From: an uncultured Clostridiaceae bacterium
GTDB lineage: Bacteria; Bacillota; Clostridia; TANB77; CAG-465
DNA length: 64,000 nt
NCBI GenBank assembly: GCA_947381905.1
Contig: CANCXL010000008.1
Coordinates: 2,037 to 66,036, forward strand
Direction: 5' to 3'
Below are positions 389-53,199 of this stretch, one piece after another. The position numbers were made by a program, and so were the translations under genes. Each line of letters opens with the position of its first letter. The first letter of the stretch is position 1. A model generated the notes under the pieces. It was given only the letters and a program-made list of their open reading frames with translations. It had not been told where the DNA came from and did not search any database.

Positions 389-712
389 TTAATTTTTCTT
401 ATTCTTTTTTAATCTTTTCTTTTCTTTTTTTAGTAGAAGAATTGTATAATTCAAAAATTTAATAAAAGATTTCTTTAATACATCATAATATTTTTCCTTC
501 TGATTTTCCACGATAGTTTGAAATAATTCATAATCAATTTTTTCAAAATTCTCTATAAGATTATATGAAATATCATCATAGGCTTCTATTAATAGTGGAA
601 TATCATTTTTATCATAAGATAAAGAAATTCTATTTAATAATTCTATAATACTTTCAAAATAAGTGATGCTGTTGCACGCTAAACAATCAGCATCTTTTTT
701 TACGTTTGACAT
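389..712 (-). CDS. Small protein F (107 aa) with a lysine-rich tail and no recognisable domain; its promoter box resembles those of small ORFs A, D and E
   Basis: ORF track gives 389..721. I prefer the ATG at 712 because AAGGAG lies 9 nt upstream. That SD sits inside the perfect palindrome CTCCTTTAAAGGAG (722-735). Confidence 0.5.
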   Translation of the reverse strand: MSNVKKDADCLACNSITYFESIIELLNRISLSYDKNDIPLLIEAYDDISYNLIENFEKIDYELFQTIVENQKEKYYDVLKKSFIKFLNYTILLLKKEKKRLKKNKKN

Positions 713-857
713 TTTAACCAACTCCTTTAAAGGAGCACTTTATGATGCTGAAGTTTAGTAATATATATATCAAAATAAGATATAACTGTCACAAAGATAA
801 TTATATCTTTACATTAATAATATATAATGAATACATATTATAAATATATATTCTACA

Positions 858-890
858 TAATTTTATTATATCACATTTTACATAATCTTT
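858..890 (-). promoter_or_regulatory. Promoter box of small ORF F (extended -10 TGTGATATAAT on the minus strand)
   Basis: Reverse complement reads gattatgtaaaaTGTGATATAATaaaattatgtag, with the -10 at 870..865. It aligns with the box upstream of ORFs A, D and E. Confidence 0.4.
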
Positions 891-1165
891 CAATTGTTAG
901 CATATCACAAATAAAATTGAAATGTAAGAGATAGATTATACTATATCTATATAAATCTATGATTTTTTGTTTTAATAAATCTTATATATAAATTTTATAT
1001 TTTGAGCTTACACTTAATATAATTTTATTTTATATCTATTTTTTTGAAAATTATTTAGAATAAACTAATGTTAATTTGTATAATAATGTAATTAATATTG
1101 CAAAAAAAGTATAAATATAGTAATATATAGTTGTAGAAATAGATATATGATAACAAGGAGTAAAT

Positions 1166-12849: not shown

Positions 12850-13461
12850 TGTAATATACAATTAAAGATGGTGATTTTTTAAGTAAACACTATGGTTTAG
12901 GTCCAGTAGAATTTCTCTGTTTTCTACTAAACATTGCTGCTTAGCCGTTTCCATTTAAAGAAAACACTATTTAGTCACCTAAAAATAGAACTGGATCGCC
13001 ACTTAAGTCCATACTTTAATCCTTAAAAAATCTTATTCTTTAACAGAACAAACATTCTAGAAGTTTTCCTTTGGTGTGCACTTATACAATTATTAGTCTC
13101 TTTTGCAGTAATAATTTCATTACCAGATAAAAAATATATATGGCCCTACACATTTTTTATCTTTTTAGCGGGTAAATCCCAATATTACCACTCAAGACAG
13201 GCTACACTACATATCGTGTCTTGGCACTTTATGTAGGTTTATACCGAACAATACTATCATTATATTTAGAATCATTCAGCCTCAGCGAAAATAGGATTCA
13301 AATTATATGCCGTTATAACTCTATCCTAAATTCTTTACTCCCTGAACACACGCAAAACTGGGCGTTTCGCGCACGGACAAGAAACTTCATCGGTGTGCCT
13401 TTTAGTGGATTTTTAGCCCCACCCTCATAAAAGTTAGCGCAACTAGAATAATGCACCATCG
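12850..13461 (-). ncRNA. ole: Large structured non-coding RNA, candidate OLE (ornate, large, extremophilic) RNA
   Basis: About 610 nt with no credible ORF and visibly higher G+C than the flanks. It contains many local stems, e.g. CAAGACA/TGTCTTG, CTACAT/ATGTAG, GAATC/GATTC, AGGAT/ATCCT, GCG-CGAAA-CGC. It has its own promoter and reads into the 4-TM gene. Confidence 0.5.
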
Positions 13462-13467
13462 ATATTT

Positions 13468-13496
13468 ATTATAACATAGTTTAATAAAAAATGCAA
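13468..13496 (-). promoter_or_regulatory. Sigma-A type promoter for the large ncRNA / oapA transcript
   Basis: On the minus strand: TTGCAT (13496-13491), 17 nt, TATAAT (13473-13468). Confidence 0.55.
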
Positions 13497-32348: not shown

Positions 32349-32687
32349 ATGGATGAAGAATTAGTAGGATGCTCAGGATCTTGTGGATCATGTGGCGGAT
32401 GTGGATCTTCAGATGAAGAAGCATTACCAGTTCTAGTATTAACAGATGAAAATGGTAAAGAAGTTACTTTTGAAAAACTTGATGTTGTAGTTTTAGAAGA
32501 TGGAAGATCTTTTTTAATAGTATCAGAACTTAAAGAAGACTATGAAGAAGAAGTTGAAGTTGTTATTCTTGAAATCAAAGAAGAAGATGGAGAACAAGTA
32601 TATGATACTCTTACAGATGAAGATTTATTAAAAGACGTTTATTCTAGATTTTTAAAACAACAAGGAATTGAAGAAGATGAAGAATAA
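32349..32687 (+). CDS. DUF1292 (YrzB-like) protein with a Cys/Gly-rich N-terminal extension
   Basis: Acidic protein of about 110 aa after ruvX, as in Bacillus yrzL-yrrK-yrzB synteny. N-terminus is CSGSCGSCGGCGS. Confidence 0.75.
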   Translation: MDEELVGCSGSCGSCGGCGSSDEEALPVLVLTDENGKEVTFEKLDVVVLEDGRSFLIVSELKEDYEEEVEVVILEIKEEDGEQVYDTLTDEDLLKDVYSRFLKQQGIEEDEE

Positions 32688-32693
32688 TATAAA

Positions 32694-32723
32694 ATAGAGG
32701 TAGTATAATCTACCTCTATTTTG
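32694..32723 (+). terminator. Intrinsic terminator of the ireB-ruvX-DUF1292 operon
   Basis: ATAGAGGTAG / CTACCTCTAT stem plus a T-run. Confidence 0.75.
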
Positions 32724-32783
32724 CATTTTAGTAGTATAAATATTGTATTTACAAAATAGATATAATAGTGATATAATATAGTT

Positions 32784-32869
32784 GTATATAGGGATGGAGT
32801 TTTATGGACCTATATATGTTGAGATTTTTTGTGACACAAGTCTATGAAAAGTATAGACTTGTGTTTTAT
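32784..32869 (+). ncRNA. Candidate small RNA, unit 1 (about 86 nt)
   Basis: -35 TTTACA at 32748-53 and extended -10 TGATATAAT at 32769-77. Hairpin TATATAGG (32785-92) / CCTATATA (32809-16) with loop GATGGAGTTTTATGGA. U-rich linker. Terminator ACACAAGTCTA / TAGACTTGTGT (32834-64) plus a T-run. Confidence 0.5.
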
Positions 32870-32880
32870 ATATTATTTGT

Positions 32881-32920
32881 ATAATTATGTTAAATATGAT
32901 ATAATAATAGTATGATATAT
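32881..32920 (+). promoter_or_regulatory. Conserved promoter box of small ORF A
   Basis: ataattatgttaaataTGATATAATaatagtatgatatat is nearly identical to 33911-33949 and to the reverse complement of about 51581-51620. Confidence 0.45.
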
Positions 32921-33018
32921 GTTTTATTTTTATAAAAATAATTTTTAAAAATATCTAGAGAAATTAATATTTAAGCTAGCATATACTTGCGTTAGGATCA
33001 AGATACTGGAGGAGATAA

Positions 33019-33198
33019 ATGTCACATCAAAGAAAAGGTTCTGGCGCAAACCCATGCGAAGGAATCTTAGTAATTGTTAATGAAATTTGGAAATCTTTAG
33101 ACGATTTCATAGAAGATTTACCAGAAGATGTTAATTACCAGCATTTTGAGTGGGTAACTAAAAATGCACTTAACAGAATTCGAAATTTTTTTAACTAG
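33019..33198 (+). CDS. Unannotated small protein A (59 aa: MSHQRKGSGANPCEGILVIVNEIWKSLDDFIEDLPEDVNYQHFEWVTKNALNRIRNFFN)
   Basis: One residue below the ORF-track cutoff. GGAGGAG RBS lies 5-7 nt upstream; it has its own promoter box and a downstream terminator. Confidence 0.5.
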   Translation: MSHQRKGSGANPCEGILVIVNEIWKSLDDFIEDLPEDVNYQHFEWVTKNALNRIRNFFN

Positions 33199-33218
33199 AT
33201 TTTAATTAGATTAACAAA

Positions 33219-33305
33219 GTTTAGACTTAATGTCTGCACATCATGAAAATCGATTCTAAGGCGCCCTAGAGATAATTCTTGTAAAGGCTACTTCGTAGTC
33301 TAAAC
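33219..33305 (+). other. Stem-enclosed, GC-richer 87-nt element in the 3' UTR of small ORF A
   Basis: GTTTAGACT (33219-27) pairs with AGTCTAAAC (33297-305). The interior contains AAGGCGCCCTAGAG, which is unusually GC-rich for this window. Confidence 0.35.
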
Positions 33306-33334
33306 TAAATGTTTATTTAGTAAATATTTAGTAA

Positions 33335-33365
33335 TAGCTTAAGATAAATCTTAGGCTATTTTTTG
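33335..33365 (+). terminator. Intrinsic terminator of the small ORF A transcript
   Basis: TAGCTTAAGA / TCTTAGGCTA stem (one G-U pair) plus TTTTTT. Confidence 0.65.
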
Positions 33366-33399
33366 TTGAAAACAGAATCAAATTATGCTATAATATAAT

Positions 33400-33487
33400 T
33401 GATATATAGGAAATGGGTTTTTATAGACCTATATATCTTTGATGTGACGTAAAAGGAGATTTTTTATCTCCTTTTACATTTTTTTAT
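33400..33487 (+). ncRNA. Candidate small RNA, unit 2 (variant loop and a different terminator)
   Basis: -35 TTGAAA at 33366-71, 17 nt, -10 TATAAT at 33389-94. Hairpin ATATATAGG / CCTATATAT with loop AAATGGGTTTTTATAGA. Terminator GTAAAAGGAGAT / ATCTCCTTTTAC (33449-77) plus a T-run. Confidence 0.45.
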
Positions 33488-33508
33488 ATAATATTGACGA
33501 ATTTTTGT

Positions 33509-33570
33509 CTTATATACATTGGAATTTTTTGTAGCGCAAGCCTATGAAAAGTATAGACTTGTGTTTTTGT
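33509..33570 (+). repeat. 5'-truncated copy of the sRNA unit (linker plus terminator only)
   Basis: cttatatacattggaattttttgtaGCGCAAGCCTAtgaaaagtaTAGACTTGTGTtttt aligns with the 3' two-thirds of units 1, 3 and 4. I found no convincing promoter. Confidence 0.5.
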
Positions 33571-33650
33571 ATTTAATAGCAAATATTATATAAATAAATG
33601 TATATATAATAATATTTACAAAATGAATATAATCGTGATATAATATAATT

Positions 33651-33737
33651 GTATATAGGGCTGGGGTTTTATGGACCTATATACATAATGAATTTTTTTG
33701 GCACAAGTCTATGAAAGGTATAGACTTGTGTTTTTGT
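33651..33737 (+). ncRNA. Candidate small RNA, unit 3
   Basis: -35 TTTACA at 33615-20 and TGATATAAT at 33636-44. Hairpin at 33652-59 / 33676-83 with loop GCTGGGGTTTTATGGA. Terminator GCACAAGTCTA / TAGACTTGTGT (33701-31) plus a T-run. Confidence 0.5.
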
Positions 33738-33818
33738 ATTTGATAGAAAATATTATATAAATAAATGTATAATATAATGATGTTTACAAAACAAATATAA
33801 TCATGATATAATATAGTT

Positions 33819-33902
33819 GTATATAGGGTTGGAGTTTTATGGACCTATATATAATGATTTTTATTGGCACAAGTCTATGAAAGGTATGGACTTGTGTTTT
33901 TA
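33819..33902 (+). ncRNA. Candidate small RNA, unit 4
   Basis: -35 TTTACA at 33783-88 and TGATATAAT at 33804-12. Hairpin at 33820-27 / 33844-51 with loop GTTGGAGTTTTATGGA. Terminator at 33867-77 / 33887-97 plus a T-run. Confidence 0.5.
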
Positions 33903-33910
33903 TATTTGAA

Positions 33911-33949
33911 TAATTATGTTAAATGTGATATAATAATAGTATGATATAT
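33911..33949 (+). promoter_or_regulatory. Conserved promoter box of small ORF D
   Basis: taattatgttaaatgTGATATAATaatagtatgatatat, with the -10 at 33929-34. Confidence 0.45.
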
Positions 33950-33961
33950 TATATTTTATTT

Positions 33962-33998
33962 GAGGTATAATTACTAAAAATGTAATTGTACCTTTTTT
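33962..33998 (+). promoter_or_regulatory. Leader hairpin with a U-run (attenuator-like) in the 5' UTR of small ORF D
   Basis: GAGGTATAATTAC (33962-74) pairs with GTAATTGTACC (33982-92), then TTTTTT. The same hairpin occurs in the ORF E leader (51543-51575). Confidence 0.45.
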
Positions 33999-34051
33999 AT
34001 GTAATATATAGTAATACTAGCATTAATCTTCTCCTTTTTGGAGGTGAGAAA

Positions 34052-34246
34052 ATGAACAAGAAAATTCATTGTGATGCTAGTATTACCCCAAATACTAGCA
34101 ATTATGAAGATATAGATAAGCAGTTGGATTATATTTTAGATTATGTAGATAATATTAATAAATATAGAATTAATAAAAAAATTAAGTTTAGCATATCTGA
34201 AATAGAAGACGCTGTATATAATATAAAGAATATACTAAATAAGTAA
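34052..34246 (+). CDS. Small protein D (64 aa), paralog of small protein E
   Basis: ORF track gives 33986..34246. I prefer the ATG at 34052, 7 nt after GGAGGTGAG. The C-terminus KKIKFSISEIEDAVYNIKNIL aligns with E (KKIKSYIDDIEDEIYNLKNNL). Confidence 0.6.
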   Translation: MNKKIHCDASITPNTSNYEDIDKQLDYILDYVDNINKYRINKKIKFSISEIEDAVYNIKNILNK

Positions 34247-34299
34247 TTTTTATCATCACCTCTTCCTTTCTTAGTTTATGGAAGATTTAAGCTAGTGTG

Positions 34300-34332
34300 A
34301 CAAAGCAAATTAATTTTTGCTTTGTTTTTTTG
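34300..34332 (+). terminator. Intrinsic terminator of small ORF D
   Basis: ACAAAGCAAA / TTTGCTTTGT stem plus TTTTTTT. Confidence 0.75.
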
Positions 34333-34532
34333 TAAATATACATTTTATGTTTTTTCTTCTGTTTGTCATACTCTTTTCACAAAATGGCATTATACTTATT
34401 GAGTATATAATAAATTATAATAGTTGTAACATTGTAAAACTATATGTATATGAAGATAATTTTTAGTATAAAGCTACATAATATGTTTATTTTTTTTTAG
34501 CGATATGATATAATATTTCTCGGTGATAAAAA

Positions 34533-48212: not shown

Positions 48213-50534
48213 ATGAGTGATTTATTGGTAGGTTTAAATGATAGGCAAAAAGAGGCAGTAGAATATATGGAAGGACCATTATTGATTTTAGCTGGAGCAG
48301 GATCTGGTAAAACTAGAGTTCTAACATATAAAATTGCGTATTTATTAGAAAAAAATATAGTAAAGCCATGGCAAATTCTTGCTATTACATTTACTAATAA
48401 GGCAGCAAAAGAAATGAAAGAAAGAGTTGAAGGACTTGTAGGACAAGTCTCATCAGATATGTGGCTTGGAACCTTTCACTCTGTTTGTGTGAGAATATTA
48501 AAAAGAGAAATCGAATTACTTGGATACACAAGAGATTTTAATATTTTTGATGAAATAGATAAAGAAAAAGTAATAAAAGAAGTTATGAAAAAACTAAATA
48601 TTGATGAAAAAATGTATCCTGTAGGACTTTTGAAATCTGAAATTAGTAAAGCAAAAGAAGTCATGAAAGATGAAATTGCTTATCAAAAATCTGCTATGGG
48701 AGATTTTAGAAAAGAAGAGATTTCTAAAGTATATACTATGTATCAACAAACATTAAGAAAAAACAATTCTATTGATTTTGATGACATTATAATGTTAACT
48801 GTAAGATTATTTTTAGAAAATCCTGATAGACTAATGTATTATCAAGAAAAGTTTCAATACATTTTAGTTGATGAGTACCAAGATACAAATAAAACACAAT
48901 TTTTACTAATTAGTCTTTTATCATCTGGTACCGGAAATATATGTGTAGTTGGAGATGAATCACAAAGTATTTATGGATTTAGAGGTGCAGATATATCTAA
49001 TATTTTAAATTTTGAAAAAGAATTTCCTAATGCTAAAATTGTAAAACTAGAGGAAAACTATAGAAGTACACAAAACATATTAAATGCAGCAAATGAAGTT
49101 ATAAAAAATAATAGTTCAAAAATAGATAAAGTTTTATGGACTCAAAACGAAGAAGGCGAAAAGATAGATTATAAAACACTTAATAATGAGTATGAAGAAG
49201 TTGAATATGTAGTAGAAAAGATAGACGATATATGCAGAAAAGAATCAAAAAAATATTCGAATTTTGCTGTACTGTTTAGAACTAATGCGCAGGCTCGTGT
49301 ACTTGAAGAAGTTTTTATGAAATCTGGAACACCATATAAATTAATTGGTGGTATAAAATTCTATGCAAGAAAAGAAATAAAAGATATCATAAGTTATTTA
49401 AAATTGATACAAAACAGAAATGATAATATTGCTTTAAAAAGAATTATAAATGAGCCTAAAAGAGGTATAGGAGATACTGCATTAGATAAGCTTGACATGC
49501 TTGCTACACAAAATGGTGTATCTATATTTGAGTTAATACAAAATCCTAATAATTTAACTGGAATTAGAAGCGCTGGAAATATAATGATGTTTAAAGACAT
49601 GATGAATTCATTAATAAAAGCTAAAGATGAAATGAAAGTGTCAGATCTTATTAAAAAAGTTTTAAAAGATTCAGGTTATGAAGATATGCTAAATTCAGAA
49701 GGAACAAAAGAAACTGAAATACGTTTTGATAACCTTATGGAATTTATTGGTGTTGCAATTGAGTTTGAAAATGAAAATGCAGAAAATACACTAGGAGATT
49801 TCTTAGAAAGCATTGCTCTTGTATCAGATGTAGATAATTTAGATGAGTCTACTGAGGCTGTTACACTTATGACAATGCATAGTGCTAAAGGATTAGAATT
49901 TGAAGATGTATTTTTAGTTGGAATGGAAGAAGGATTGTTCCCTTCAAAACGTTCAATTGAAGAGGATGCACAGACAGAAGAAGAAAGAAGACTTTGTTAT
50001 GTCGCAATAACTCGTGCTAAAGAGCATTTATTTATGACAAATACTAAAAAAAGAACACTATATGGTTCTACTACATTTTCTATACCATCAAGATTTATAG
50101 ATGAAATACCAGACAAATTACTTAGTGCAGATTCAATAGAGAATAAAGAAACAAAAGGTCAAAGCACAAGTGTATCAAATCCATGGTTAGATAATGAATA
50201 TAAAAGAGTAGAAACATATATTTCTACTAGAAACAGAGTAAATGAATCTATAGAGAGAAAGTCTACTACGCCAAATATAGGAGTAAGTGTAGATTCATTC
50301 CTTAAAAATTTAGCAGGTGCTGGCGCTACAACTACACCAAAAGTAAATTCGGCATCAAGTGCTAAATATAAAATAGGAATGGAAGTAAAACACAAAAAAT
50401 TTGGAGTAGGCATTATTGAAAACATAGAACCTGAAGGCGACGACTTTAAGTTAGAGATAATGTTTGATGGTACAGGTTTTAAACGACTTATGGCAAATTA
50501 TACTCCACTTGAAATTATAAAGGGAAATGAATAG
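48213..50534 (+). CDS. pcrA: ATP-dependent DNA helicase PcrA (UvrD/Rep family)
   Basis: Walker A AGAGSGKT, DEYQDTN, and helicase motifs III-VI (TMHSAKGLEF, VAITRA). Confidence 0.9.
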   Translation: MSDLLVGLNDRQKEAVEYMEGPLLILAGAGSGKTRVLTYKIAYLLEKNIVKPWQILAITFTNKAAKEMKERVEGLVGQVSSDMWLGTFHSVCVRILKREIELLGYTRDFNIFDEIDKEKVIKEVMKKLNIDEKMYPVGLLKSEISKAKEVMKDEIAYQKSAMGDFRKEEISKVYTMYQQTLRKNNSIDFDDIIMLTVRLFLENPDRLMYYQEKFQYILVDEYQDTNKTQFLLISLLSSGTGNICVVGDESQSIYGFRGADISNILNFEKEFPNAKIVKLEENYRSTQNILNAANEVIKNNSSKIDKVLWTQNEEGEKIDYKTLNNEYEEVEYVVEKIDDICRKESKKYSNFAVLFRTNAQARVLEEVFMKSGTPYKLIGGIKFYARKEIKDIISYLKLIQNRNDNIALKRIINEPKRGIGDTALDKLDMLATQNGVSIFELIQNPNNLTGIRSAGNIMMFKDMMNSLIKAKDEMKVSDLIKKVLKDSGYEDMLNSEGTKETEIRFDNLMEFIGVAIEFENENAENTLGDFLESIALVSDVDNLDESTEAVTLMTMHSAKGLEFEDVFLVGMEEGLFPSKRSIEEDAQTEEERRLCYVAITRAKEHLFMTNTKKRTLYGSTTFSIPSRFIDEIPDKLLSADSIENKETKGQSTSVSNPWLDNEYKRVETYISTRNRVNESIERKSTTPNIGVSVDSFLKNLAGAGATTTPKVNSASSAKYKIGMEVKHKKFGVGIIENIEPEGDDFKLEIMFDGTGFKRLMANYTPLEIIKGNE

Positions 50535-51204: not shown

Positions 51205-51236
51205 AGTAAAAAACAAGATGAAATTAATCATCTTGT
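51205..51236 (-). terminator. Intrinsic terminator of small ORF E
   Basis: On the minus strand, ACAAGATGA / TCATCTTGT stem plus TTTTTT. Confidence 0.7.
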
Positions 51237-51299
51237 CGTATAGCATTACTATCTCACCTATAAGTAGAAAGGGAGAGGATTTAGAAAAATTAATAATAT

Positions 51300-51485
51300 T
51301 TATAAGTTATTTTTTAAATTATAAATTTCGTCTTCTATGTCATCAATGTATGATTTGATTTTTTTAGATAATCTAAATCTTTCTAAATCATATATAATAG
51401 ATAACATATTGTTAAGACCTTTATTTATTAAATCATAATTCATGCTATTTTGGGTGTCAGCATGATAATTACAATTTTTCTTCAT
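51300..51485 (-). CDS. Small protein E (61 aa), paralog of small protein D
   Basis: ORF track gives 51300..51515. I prefer the ATG at 51485, 7 nt after AAGGAGGTGG. The C-terminal half aligns with D. Confidence 0.6.
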   Translation of the reverse strand: MKKNCNYHADTQNSMNYDLINKGLNNMLSIIYDLERFRLSKKIKSYIDDIEDEIYNLKNNL

Positions 51486-51542
51486 AAAATCCACCTCCTT
51501 AAAGTGAGGGCTCATGCTGATACTACTATATATTATACAAAT

Positions 51543-51575
51543 GAGGTATAATTACGATTTTGGTAATTATACCTC
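51543..51575 (-). promoter_or_regulatory. Leader hairpin in the 5' UTR of small ORF E (homolog of 33962-33998)
   Basis: GAGGTATAATTAC / GTAATTATACCTC, a perfect 13-bp stem. The promoter -10 (GGTATAAT) is at 51610..51603 on the minus strand. Confidence 0.45.
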
Positions 51576-51654
51576 AAATAAAATATAATATATCATACTA
51601 TTATTATACCATATTTTGCACATTATTTCAAAGTTATAAACTATTAACTATTTA

Positions 51655-53199
51655 CTAAAATATAATCTTATTTTTATCATTATTTTTCATGTTTTTTAGT
51701 ACATTATTAATTTTTTCAACATTACATTCATCTTTTGATTCATAAATTTGAGCATATTCCTTAGCCTTTTTTAAATCTTGTGAGTTTCCTGTCTCTAAAT
51801 ATTTATTATAATATATAAATATTAAATCTTCATATGCTTTATATACTTTATGATTTATACATTCTTCTAGCAATTTTATGCTTTTTTCTATATCTTTTGC
51901 AATTCCAATTTCTGGAGCACCATTTTCATAGTAATAGTGAGCTAGATTATACTTAGACCAAAAGCAAACTGAATATACTGTCGCATCAGTGGATTTCTCA
52001 TAGTATTCAAAGGCTTTTTTTAAGTTCTTTTTTGTACCAATTCCTATTCTATACATTTGACCAAGTTTATTAGATGCCCAGCTTTCACCTTGTAAAGATG
52101 CAGACTTAAATAAATCTAGAGCTTTTTTGTAATTTCCTTCTTCTTCATACATTATTCCTAAATTATTTAGAGCATAAACGTAGTTTTTGTTTGCAGCAAA
52201 TTCAAATAGTTTTTTAGCCTTCTTTAAGTCCTTATTAATAAATGGAATATTCCCCTCCTTAAAAGCTGTACCAAGGCTATTTATTGCAGCTATACAATTT
52301 ACTTTTCTTGCTTTATTAAAATAATGAAAGGCTTTTTTCATATCATTTCTAGATTTAGTACCAATAAATCCATTATAATATAAATGTCCAAGTGCCCATA
52401 TAGCATTAGGATGTTTTTTTTCTGCAGCTGTTTTATAAAAATTATAACTTTCTTGGTACCTAGGATAACCTGCAACCTGTCCATAAAGTTCTAGTGAGCC
52501 CATTTCAAAGCATGCATATGGATTTCCTTTTTTTGCTAACTCATGAATTCCTCTAATTGACCAAAGACCACCTTTAAGTTGAACGGTGACAAAGTCTATT
52601 GCATCATCTGACGATACTTCGGAAGAATATAAAAAATCATCTAGAGTATCCATAAATTTATCTTCAACATAAACAGGTTGTTTTTTGTCAAGAACGACAA
52701 AAAATAATATTTCAATAAAGAACTTATATAGATTTCTAGAATCGAGTAGTCTTTTTAACGTAGAAGAGAATTCTTTTGTAACTTCTAAATCATTTTTTGA
52801 AATATTATATAGTCTTAAACATACTTTATTGAATTTAGCATTAGAATTTATTACATCTATAGGCTGATCAAAATAGTCTTTAGTTATAAATATATTTTTA
52901 TTGTCTATAGTTGCTATAATATTTAATATTATGTTCTTAAATGCATTTTCATCTTTTAAGTATTTTTGTTTAAGCCCAAGATAGATATTTTTATATGTTG
53001 AGTTGATAGCTCTAACGCCAGTACAATAATTGTTTACTGTAGTATCTGATATAGAATCTATATCAAAAAGAATGCAGAATATTTCAGATTGTATAGTAAA
53101 ACCTTTGTTGTTTGTTTCTTCTTTTAAAATTCTAAATAAATTACCTAAAGACAAATGTCTATTATTATTATTTAGTTTTACATAGTTTTTTTTATTCAT
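51655..53199 (-). CDS. Sel1/TPR-repeat protein with an N-terminal helix-turn-helix-like segment
   Basis: The C-terminal half has repeated A..LG.MY..G.G...........A..Y..KAA Sel1-type units. The N-terminus LGNLFRILKEE...TVNNYCTGVRAIN resembles an XRE HTH with an insertion; that call is weak. Confidence 0.6.
   Translation of the reverse strand: MNKKNYVKLNNNNRHLSLGNLFRILKEETNNKGFTIQSEIFCILFDIDSISDTTVNNYCTGVRAINSTYKNIYLGLKQKYLKDENAFKNIILNIIATIDNKNIFITKDYFDQPIDVINSNAKFNKVCLRLYNISKNDLEVTKEFSSTLKRLLDSRNLYKFFIEILFFVVLDKKQPVYVEDKFMDTLDDFLYSSEVSSDDAIDFVTVQLKGGLWSIRGIHELAKKGNPYACFEMGSLELYGQVAGYPRYQESYNFYKTAAEKKHPNAIWALGHLYYNGFIGTKSRNDMKKAFHYFNKARKVNCIAAINSLGTAFKEGNIPFINKDLKKAKKLFEFAANKNYVYALNNLGIMYEEEGNYKKALDLFKSASLQGESWASNKLGQMYRIGIGTKKNLKKAFEYYEKSTDATVYSVCFWSKYNLAHYYYENGAPEIGIAKDIEKSIKLLEECINHKVYKAYEDLIFIYYNKYLETGNSQDLKKAKEYAQIYESKDECNVEKINNVLKNMKNNDKNKIIF

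Follow-up and report, generated by a model that had tools for sequence, protein, structure and literature searches.

Why a short transcription unit encoding a 64-residue protein should recur on one bacterial contig with its non-coding parts kept as well as, or better than, its coding sequence is the question raised by a 64,000-nucleotide stretch of an uncultured Clostridiaceae genome (assembly GCA_947381905.1, contig CANCXL010000008.1, positions 2,037 to 66,036), hereafter called the window. The initial annotation, made from the sequence alone, described a unit encoding small protein D on the plus strand and a second copy, encoding small protein E, on the minus strand, and proposed that the RNA itself carries function. 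The analysis reported here suggests, with a probability that we put at roughly 0.6, that D and E are part of a family of small-protein genes, confined to one lineage and present in several copies, in which the mRNAs would be self-silencing and the logic would resemble that of type I toxin-antitoxin systems. We have high confidence in the description of the family at the RNA level, which is built on comparative sequence analysis, and modest confidence in the label of putative toxin for the protein.

The duplication is clear, with D (33903-34332, plus strand) and E (51205-51641, minus strand) sharing 70% identity over 380 nucleotides (blastn E = 2.6e-37 within the 1.73-Mb genome) and including a 141-nucleotide inverted-repeat arm that is 80% complementary. 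Identity is about 95% in the 5' 60 nucleotides versus about 65% in the remaining unit, and the near-identity of promoter and early transcript described previously is seen in alignment columns 48-98. The window contains three occurrences of the 21-mer TATAATAATAGTATGATATAT, which belongs to this block, where chance would give 0.05, and the likeness of the two units is therefore not AT-rich low-complexity noise, an explanation that had been named as one that would weaken the claim and that a formal alignment also does not bear out. The predicted mRNA is about 390 nucleotides long and is driven by a common extended -10 promoter, a box that recurs at 32874-32952 as well as upstream of E. Both units also contain the other shared parts that had been listed, namely a leader hairpin of 13-14 pairs with differing loops, an extended Shine-Dalgarno (SD) sequence preceded by a CUCC-type anti-SD segment, and related 3' untranslated regions (UTRs) that contain a C/U box and a small hairpin as well as a terminator, which lies at 34299-34326 in D and at 51237-51212 in E. 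Three things escaped the initial annotation: the long-range pairings of the leader with the coding sequence and with the 3' UTR, an antisense partner, and the size of the family.

D and E are not a single duplication but members of a family of at least nine. A protein-profile search of the host genome (27% GC, 97% complete, and occurring in mouse and rat gut metagenomes) found nine copies, one of them truncated, and a covariance-model search with the leader also found nine, including a longer 107-residue gene at about 690-905 (minus strand) of the window. Among 5.8 billion protein sequences the family forms only 26 clusters when grouped at 90% identity, and a profile search of a second library, made up of 1.84 billion representatives at 50% identity, gave 14 matching proteins; no family match in these searches carries a name or a Pfam domain. 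Outside the host, the leader matches three units in two other species of the genus among 41 related genomes (G012:C28, G022:C69 and G012:C3), and the first two of these have the same architecture and matching small RNAs. The protein profile also matched two other species, G012 and, weakly, G007, and presence is patchy overall, at 3 of the 41 related genomes. A scan of genome contigs at large with protein D returned only a spurious Symbiopectobacterium match (L001). On the chromosomes of other strains the positions of D and E are syntenic.

The conserved non-coding parts are complementary to one another and to the beginning of the coding sequence. Pairs were counted in a gap-free alignment of 17 diverged units, hand-anchored on a conserved TAG/CTA core, in which a leader segment (seg1) pairs with codons 8-11 (seg2) to form the 13-bp helix H2, whose codon position is constant and which encloses the SD sequence and the AUG. 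Pairing is present in 91.9% of cells, 11 of the 13 pairs have changed on both sides, and none of 500 shuffles is as good, while moving the partner by 1-3 columns leaves 18-47% paired. Seg2 can also pair with seg3 (codons 14-17) in hairpin H3, for which 85% of cells are paired and six of 11 pairs covary; between C25 and L022, for instance, a C-G pair of seg2 with seg3 is replaced by A-U while seg1 is unaltered.

A third interaction joins the two ends of the mRNA. Along the 3' UTR a C/U box is followed by a purine box and then by a fourth segment (seg4), and these three are complementary to the SD sequence, the leader anti-SD and seg1 respectively. Duplexes of leader and 3' UTR average -31.9 kcal/mol for cognate pairs versus -20.6 (sd 5.5) for non-cognate ones and have z-scores of -4.2 to -7.8 against shuffles (D, -31.4 kcal/mol, z = -6.0; E, -28.6 kcal/mol, z = -4.5), and the 5'-3' interaction and H3 appear together in the minimum free energy (MFE) folds of all seven full-length paralogues. 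For the whole mRNA the fold z-scores are -6.9 (D) and -8.8 (E), with the 5'-3' interaction present in the MFE and centroid structures of both. Partition-function calculations give the SD core a probability of being unpaired that is mostly at or below 0.2 in the nascent, truncated and full-length states (at or below 0.10 in every state modelled for D), and give the H3 loop of D a probability of 0.99 in the full-length mRNA. The extended -10 promoter, the 5' hairpin, the seg1:seg2 helix, the alternative seg2:seg3 hairpin and the pairing boxes of the 3' UTR are present in all members of the D family that were examined. In silico, then, SD sequestration and 5'-3' pairing are predicted to keep the folded mRNA inert, and the related 3' UTRs of D and E are, by predicted pairing, the 3' half of a fold-back lock. 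The covariation, the co-evolving leader and 3' UTR pairing and the fold statistics strongly support the earlier suggestion that the RNA itself is functional.

The D and E proteins had been described as clearly paralogous only in their C-terminal halves. They in fact align over their full length with 38% identity, and what stands of the claim is the difference in constraint: among orthologues and close paralogues the ratio of nonsynonymous to synonymous polymorphism (pN/pS) is 0.12-0.54 from codon 19 to the end (D, 0.20-0.27; E, 0.41 against its L016 orthologue) but 0.56-2.8 over codons 2-18. The low values in the C-terminal part indicate a real gene whose product presumably acts through its helical hairpin, and the open reading frame (ORF) length, SD sequence and reading frame are kept in 17 diverged copies. 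The first 17 or so codons carry the small-RNA target site, seg2 and seg3, and appear from these comparisons to behave as RNA, evolving under RNA-level constraints, which would be why paralogy is plainly seen only in the C-terminal halves. In the AlphaFold model of D (mean predicted local distance difference test score 80) residues 1-14 are disordered and helices 15-36 and 42-63 form the hairpin. Searches of Pfam, NCBIfam, PADLOC and PHROGs assign the small proteins to no family and no toxin family, and a Foldseek search of the PDB gave no significant neighbour, the best being the GacS/RetS DHp domains (E = 0.57, TM 0.69).

Directly upstream of D, at 32741-33905, lies an array of genes for small RNAs of about 85 nucleotides, which are complementary to the mRNAs of tiny genes nearby at two sites that evolve together. 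In each unit a promoter is followed by a hairpin (GTATATAGG-loop-CCTATATA), a linker, often with CAU at its end, and a terminator; the linker pairs with the AUG and codons 1-6 of one specific mRNA, and the hairpin loop with the H3 loop of the same mRNA. The cognate of D is the gene that we call u3, whose linker is complementary over 17 bp to codons 2-8 of D (site A) and whose hairpin loop, CUGGGGU, is complementary over 6 bp to the H3 loop ACCCCAA (site B). The predicted u3-D duplex has an energy of -31.7 to -32.7 kcal/mol versus -22 or weaker for non-cognate pairs, and in an all-against-all RNAduplex comparison cognate pairs lie at -27 to -38 kcal/mol, whereas most of the remaining pairs fall at about -10 to -22. 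Seven of the eight complete units in the genome (D and those on C10, C12, C43, C14, C18 and C25) have an adjacent cognate small RNA, and the G012 and G022 units show the same two-site match as those of the host. Both sites change in a compensatory manner. The G000 form of D (loop ACCCCAA, codons AAC AAG AAA ATT CAT) fits u3 (CUGGGGU, CAUAAUGAAUUUUUUUG), and the L014 allele (CCACAA, AAAAATTTCAACAT) fits its own small RNAs s2-s3 (UUGUGG, AUGUUGAGAUUUUU); such co-variation extends across paralogues, strains and species. Regulator binding is thus the closest of the mechanisms proposed in the initial annotation, although it holds for D, for which a cognate antisense RNA is complementary to the translation start as in type I systems, and not for E, for which no such RNA was identified.

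We note that the arrays include small RNAs fitting D alleles that are absent from the same genome (u1 at 32746-32867 of the window, L014:2250-2810 and L015:2416-2810). The u1 linker fits the L014 allele, the first L014 unit and L015:2416 fit the G000 allele, and L015:2582 fits the L019 allele (-33.1 kcal/mol); for the D allele of L015 itself a full cognate appears to be missing. This pattern of non-resident small RNAs could also arise if the assemblies are chimeras of several strains. If the pattern is true, the arrays would be analogous to the orphan immunity genes of polymorphic toxin systems.

Taken in the order of transcription, these elements suggest the following scheme. The 5' compound hairpin (an inner stem, H1, extended by an outer AU stem, H0) would guard the 5' end and give a long-lived mRNA. 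The seg1:seg2 clamp would form first, during transcription, and block premature translation with the SD sequence, AUG and first codons held in its loop, where the local CUCC anti-SD would pair with the SD sequence. The completed mRNA would then re-pair, with seg2:seg3 forming H3, and with seg1, anti-SD and SD taken up by seg4, the purine box and the C/U box, so that the SD sequence is hidden, the H3 loop is displayed, and the finished mRNA becomes a stable untranslated store. The adjacent trans-encoded small RNA would provide a second layer of control for D and six of the seven other complete copies, docking loop to loop on H3, zipping over the start codon, blocking 30S binding and probably triggering cleavage. 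Protein, presumably harmful or growth-modulating, would be made only when these blocks fail. The coordinates of the elements are collected in Table 1.

Table 1. Predicted elements of units D and E and of the small-RNA gene u3, in window coordinates.
Feature	Position	Strand	Details
D promoter	33906..33934	+	-35 TTGAAT, 17-nt spacer, extended -10 TGTGATATAAT; 10/12 consensus matches with TG; predicted transcription start near 33941
D 5' compound stem-loop	33944..34009	+	Outer AU stem H0, 33944-33954 with 33999-34009; inner stem H1, 33962-33974 with 33982-33994; then U tract (MFE and centroid folds)
D seg1	34013..34024	+	AATACTAGCATT; pairs with seg2 (helix H2) or seg4 (3' UTR)
D anti-SD and SD	34028..34048	+	Anti-SD CTTCTCC 34028-34034; extended SD GGAGGTGAG 34040-34048; local hairpin in folds
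D coding sequence	34052..34246	+	64 aa
D site A	34057..34073	+	Codons 2-8; 17 bp complementary to u3 linker
D hairpin H3	34074..34100	+	seg2 34074-34084; loop ACCCCAA (site B) 34085-34091; seg3 34091-34100
D 3' UTR	34253..34298	+	C/U box TCATCACCTCTTCCTTTCT 34253-34271, with SD; purine box GGAAGAT 34280-34286, with leader anti-SD; seg4 AAGCTAGTGT 34289-34298, with seg1
D intrinsic terminator	34299..34331	+	
Small-RNA gene u3, cognate of D	33615..33738	+	Promoter; 5' hairpin GTATATAGG-loop-CCTATATA; linker CAUAAUGAAUUUUUUUGG; terminator
E promoter	51603..51631	-	TTGAAA, 17-nt spacer, TGGTATAAT; 11/12 consensus matches with TG
E hairpin H1	51542..51576	-	14 pairs, loop CAAAATC; flanked by outer AU stem H0
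E leader	51491..51523	-	seg1 GTATCAGCATG 51523-51513; anti-SD CCCTCAC 51510-51504; SD AAGGAGGTGG 51500-51491
E coding sequence	51300..51485	-	61 aa
E seg2, loop and seg3	51441..51464	-	Inside coding sequence; seg2 CATGCTGA 51464-51457; loop CACCCAAAA 51456-51448; seg3 TAGCATG 51447-51441
E 3' UTR	51206..51280	-	C/U box ATCCTCTCCCTTTCT 51280-51266; purine box GGTGAGA 51258-51252; seg4 AATGCTATAC 51247-51238; terminator 51237-51212 and T tract

Several results weigh against this reading. The modelled D protein is hydrophilic and has no membrane helix such as type I toxins usually possess. Anchoring the helix alignments by hand on the TAG/CTA core favours the register that was tested, and the paralogues are related sequences, so that the shuffle counts are not probabilities. 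The SD sequence is exposed in no predicted state, and the model therefore leaves the switching-on of translation unexplained. Transcription start, 3' ends and processing are all predictions, and the only candidate RNA runs that contain the sequence appear to be DNA or low-coverage contigs. Unit E adds to these points, as none of 22 small-RNA units pairs with it better than -21.4 kcal/mol, and genome-wide ungapped pairing scans and a two-site motif search for its cognate returned only its own antisense strand. One candidate antisense partner, a short RNA on the minus strand at about 51190-51120, beyond the end of E, was rejected, since its anti-AUG stretch is neither kept nor co-varying in the L016 orthologue. 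E does retain the whole self-silencing fold, and either silencing intrinsic to the mRNA suffices for this copy or the gene for its partner is missing from the assembly, which is 97% complete, assemblies being prone to break at these repeats.

We also note that a 514-residue protein with a helix-turn-helix (HTH)-like N-terminus and Sel1/TPR repeats is encoded at 51655-53199 on the same strand as E, and that its gene ends about 25 nucleotides before the E -35 box; no terminator-like hairpin was found between the two. This protein could be functionally linked to the partnerless E.

The same RNA architecture might serve a protein that is not a toxin but a tightly controlled regulatory helical hairpin, docking for instance on a four-helix bundle such as a histidine-kinase DHp domain and acting on phosphorelays in the manner of Sda or Spo0E, with the small RNA and the mRNA fold setting a threshold or a time for its production. 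We consider this somewhat unlikely. A soluble two-helix hairpin without a membrane segment, kept under purifying selection, is what such a regulator would look like, its best structural neighbours, though non-significant, are DHp domains, and E lies just downstream of the HTH-like/Sel1-repeat protein; helical hairpins are generic, however, with no significant Foldseek match here, and at least nine rapidly diverging paralogues with private small RNAs, non-resident specificities and a presence in 3 of 41 genomes are selfish traits of the sort seen in toxin-antitoxin loci. That the units are instead decaying copies of a repeat or mobile element, their ORFs and helices being functionless leftovers, is very improbable. 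The family is indeed multi-copy, one copy is truncated (C43:1479-1655) and public assemblies break at the shared leader, yet decay would not account for the ORF length, SD sequence and frame kept in 17 copies, for C-terminal pN/pS well below 1, for compensatory changes in three helices and two small-RNA target sites, or for the synteny of D and E in other strains.

Attenuation and thermosensing were among the functions that the initial annotation suggested for the RNA. Thermosensing finds no support in these results; attenuation would act at hairpin H1. The H1 stem (10-13 bp, GGTATAATTAC/GTAATTATACC) is present in 14 of 14 units compared, with G-C replaced by A-U at one pair in six units and with G.U pairs that are workable on the sense strand only. 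H1 is terminator-like in both D and E, and in most copies it is followed by a U-rich tail; together with a stem sequence conserved far beyond the needs of pairing and with the concentration of D/E identity in the 5' 60 nucleotides, this is consistent with H1 and its U tract being an attenuator, or the source of a separate RNA of about 55 nucleotides, in which a common factor reads the near-invariant stem GGTATAATTAC and controls read-through into all members. No antiterminator that would compete with H1 was found; in all MFE folds its flanks pair with each other as H0 and lengthen the hairpin, and this outer stem is more in keeping with a 5' stabiliser. In E the tail, CAUUUGUAU, is a poor U tract, and an attenuator would leave unexplained the covarying seg1:seg2, seg2:seg3 and seg1:seg4 helices and the anti-SD box of the 3' UTR. 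We therefore regard it as improbable as the main account of the family, while premature termination at H1 may contribute to the control of a self-silencing, toxin-antitoxin-like unit.

The closest parallels to such a unit are found among type I loci. In aapA1/IsoA1 and AapA3 of Helicobacter a long-distance 5'-3' lock hides the SD sequence, and metastable hairpins sequester it (PMC5416894, PMC6733600). The D family resembles these loci in having a full-length mRNA predicted to be locked 5' to 3' with the SD hidden, additional SD-sequestering hairpins of leader and ORF that we propose to be co-transcriptional, an antisense RNA that uses loop-loop contacts and covers the translation start, and multi-copy, chromosomal loci. 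It differs in that its small RNA is a separate neighbour on the same strand with two short, non-contiguous sites, whereas the aapA antisense RNA is fully complementary and in cis; in that its full-length fold already shows the target loop, whereas the target hairpins of aapA1 appear only after 3' trimming; and in that its protein is a soluble helical hairpin of 61-68 residues rather than a 30-residue membrane peptide. No sequence or Rfam relationship between aapA/IsoA and the D family was found.

The hok/Sok system, with its tac/fbi fold-back inhibition, likewise pairs the 5' with the 3' end of the mRNA to give an inert store and reuses segments in sequential alternative pairings. The D family shares the reuse of segments and, on the scheme proposed here, the inert store, but is without an overlapping mok-like frame, and it has a trans-encoded antisense RNA, a Gram-positive host and an unrelated protein. 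In tisB/istR-1, zorO/orzO and shoB/ohsC the small RNA is encoded beside its target and makes limited pairing near the translation start, and in the Fst system of Enterococcus (RNA I/RNA II) RNA I has a 5' helix and a structure sequestering the ribosome-binding site, with at least two dispersed interaction sites. The small RNAs of the D family are similarly adjacent and make limited pairing, and its 5' helix, sequestered ribosome-binding site and dispersed sites are as in Fst, but unlike these adjacent-RNA and Fst systems it has tandem small-RNA arrays of up to four units, including versions for non-resident alleles, a predicted four-segment switch with a 3' UTR anti-SD, and a protein that is not hydrophobic. 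Type I toxins are usually, though not always, hydrophobic membrane peptides, with SymE and RalR as exceptions; the D protein, as modelled, is not of this kind. We suggest tentatively that the family might represent a previously undescribed type I-like module, combining a soluble helical-hairpin effector, a four-segment switch (1:2 with 3:4 versus 2:3 with 1:4) with a 3' UTR segment that imitates the 16S anti-SD, and first codons (about 17) that serve as a fast-evolving RNA 'address' for private small RNAs, the arrays being an RNA-based immunity repertoire.

Searches against Rfam 15, at gathering and at permissive thresholds, assigned the leader, 3' UTR and small RNAs to no known family, with nothing in 32650-34400 better than E = 0.75 and no match to the models for hok/Sok, Fst, the Clostridioides difficile RCd/SQ antitoxins, RNA thermometers or riboswitch leaders. 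The only gathering-level hits in the window lie elsewhere. One is a full-length ornate large extremophilic (OLE) RNA at 12852-13475 (minus strand; 390 bits, gathering threshold 50) in this small, AT-rich gut genome, and the other a match to n00280, a C. difficile small RNA, at 49950-50048 (plus strand), inside a PcrA/UvrD helicase gene and just above the gathering threshold (66.1 bits).

Some further loci share parts of this organization. ORF A (33019-33198, plus strand, 59 residues, unrelated in sequence) has the same promoter box and, directly downstream, a cognate small RNA at 33366-33480 (plus strand), with which it pairs at -37.6 kcal/mol through 13 bp over codons 1-5 and a loop contact (AUGGGUUU versus AAACCCAU); a paralogue of this pair lies on contig C2 (G000 C2:32900-34100), and for the A-type small genes 5'-3' pairing is not significant (z = -0.6 and -0.1). 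A third type of small protein, of 94 residues (MNNNTIKANGNISKL... and MNKYTYKANGNISKL...), is encoded at G000 C9:13060-14000 and C22:10630-11400, where divergent small-RNA units lie ahead of the genes and match codons 2-6 through complementary linkers (10-13 bp). The 107-residue gene at about 690-905 (MSNVKKDADCLACNS...) shares the promoter box, has a hairpin resembling H1 together with a pair like seg1/seg2 (CAGCATC/GATGCTG), and scores 49 bits with the leader model; no cognate small RNA was identified for it. The truncated copy at C43:1479-1655 (minus strand), which has no N-terminus, promoter or leader and adjoins three tandem small-RNA units, is probably a pseudogene. Public short-read assemblies break exactly at the shared promoter and leader repeat (window 33929-33974; starts of L016 and L019), and the neighbours of such units, possible small RNAs included, are therefore systematically lost from metagenome contigs. 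Promoter-like matches antisense to D and E, downstream of each, occur at the frequency expected by chance in AT-rich DNA and were set aside as evidence.

Finally, the family would be a Gram-positive gut-commensal addition to the few mRNAs known to be locked 5' to 3', with unusually clean natural covariation across 17 diverged copies. It may also offer an instance of a coding sequence shaped by RNA pairing, in which pN/pS is at or above about 1 in the first 17 or so codons and purifying selection acts on the remainder, and a testable case of allele-specific recognition between small RNA and mRNA, with arrays that appear to hold non-resident specificities. The protein family is without known relatives, and any phenotype that it confers would add something new to the biology of this uncultured gut lineage, which is abundant in rodents.

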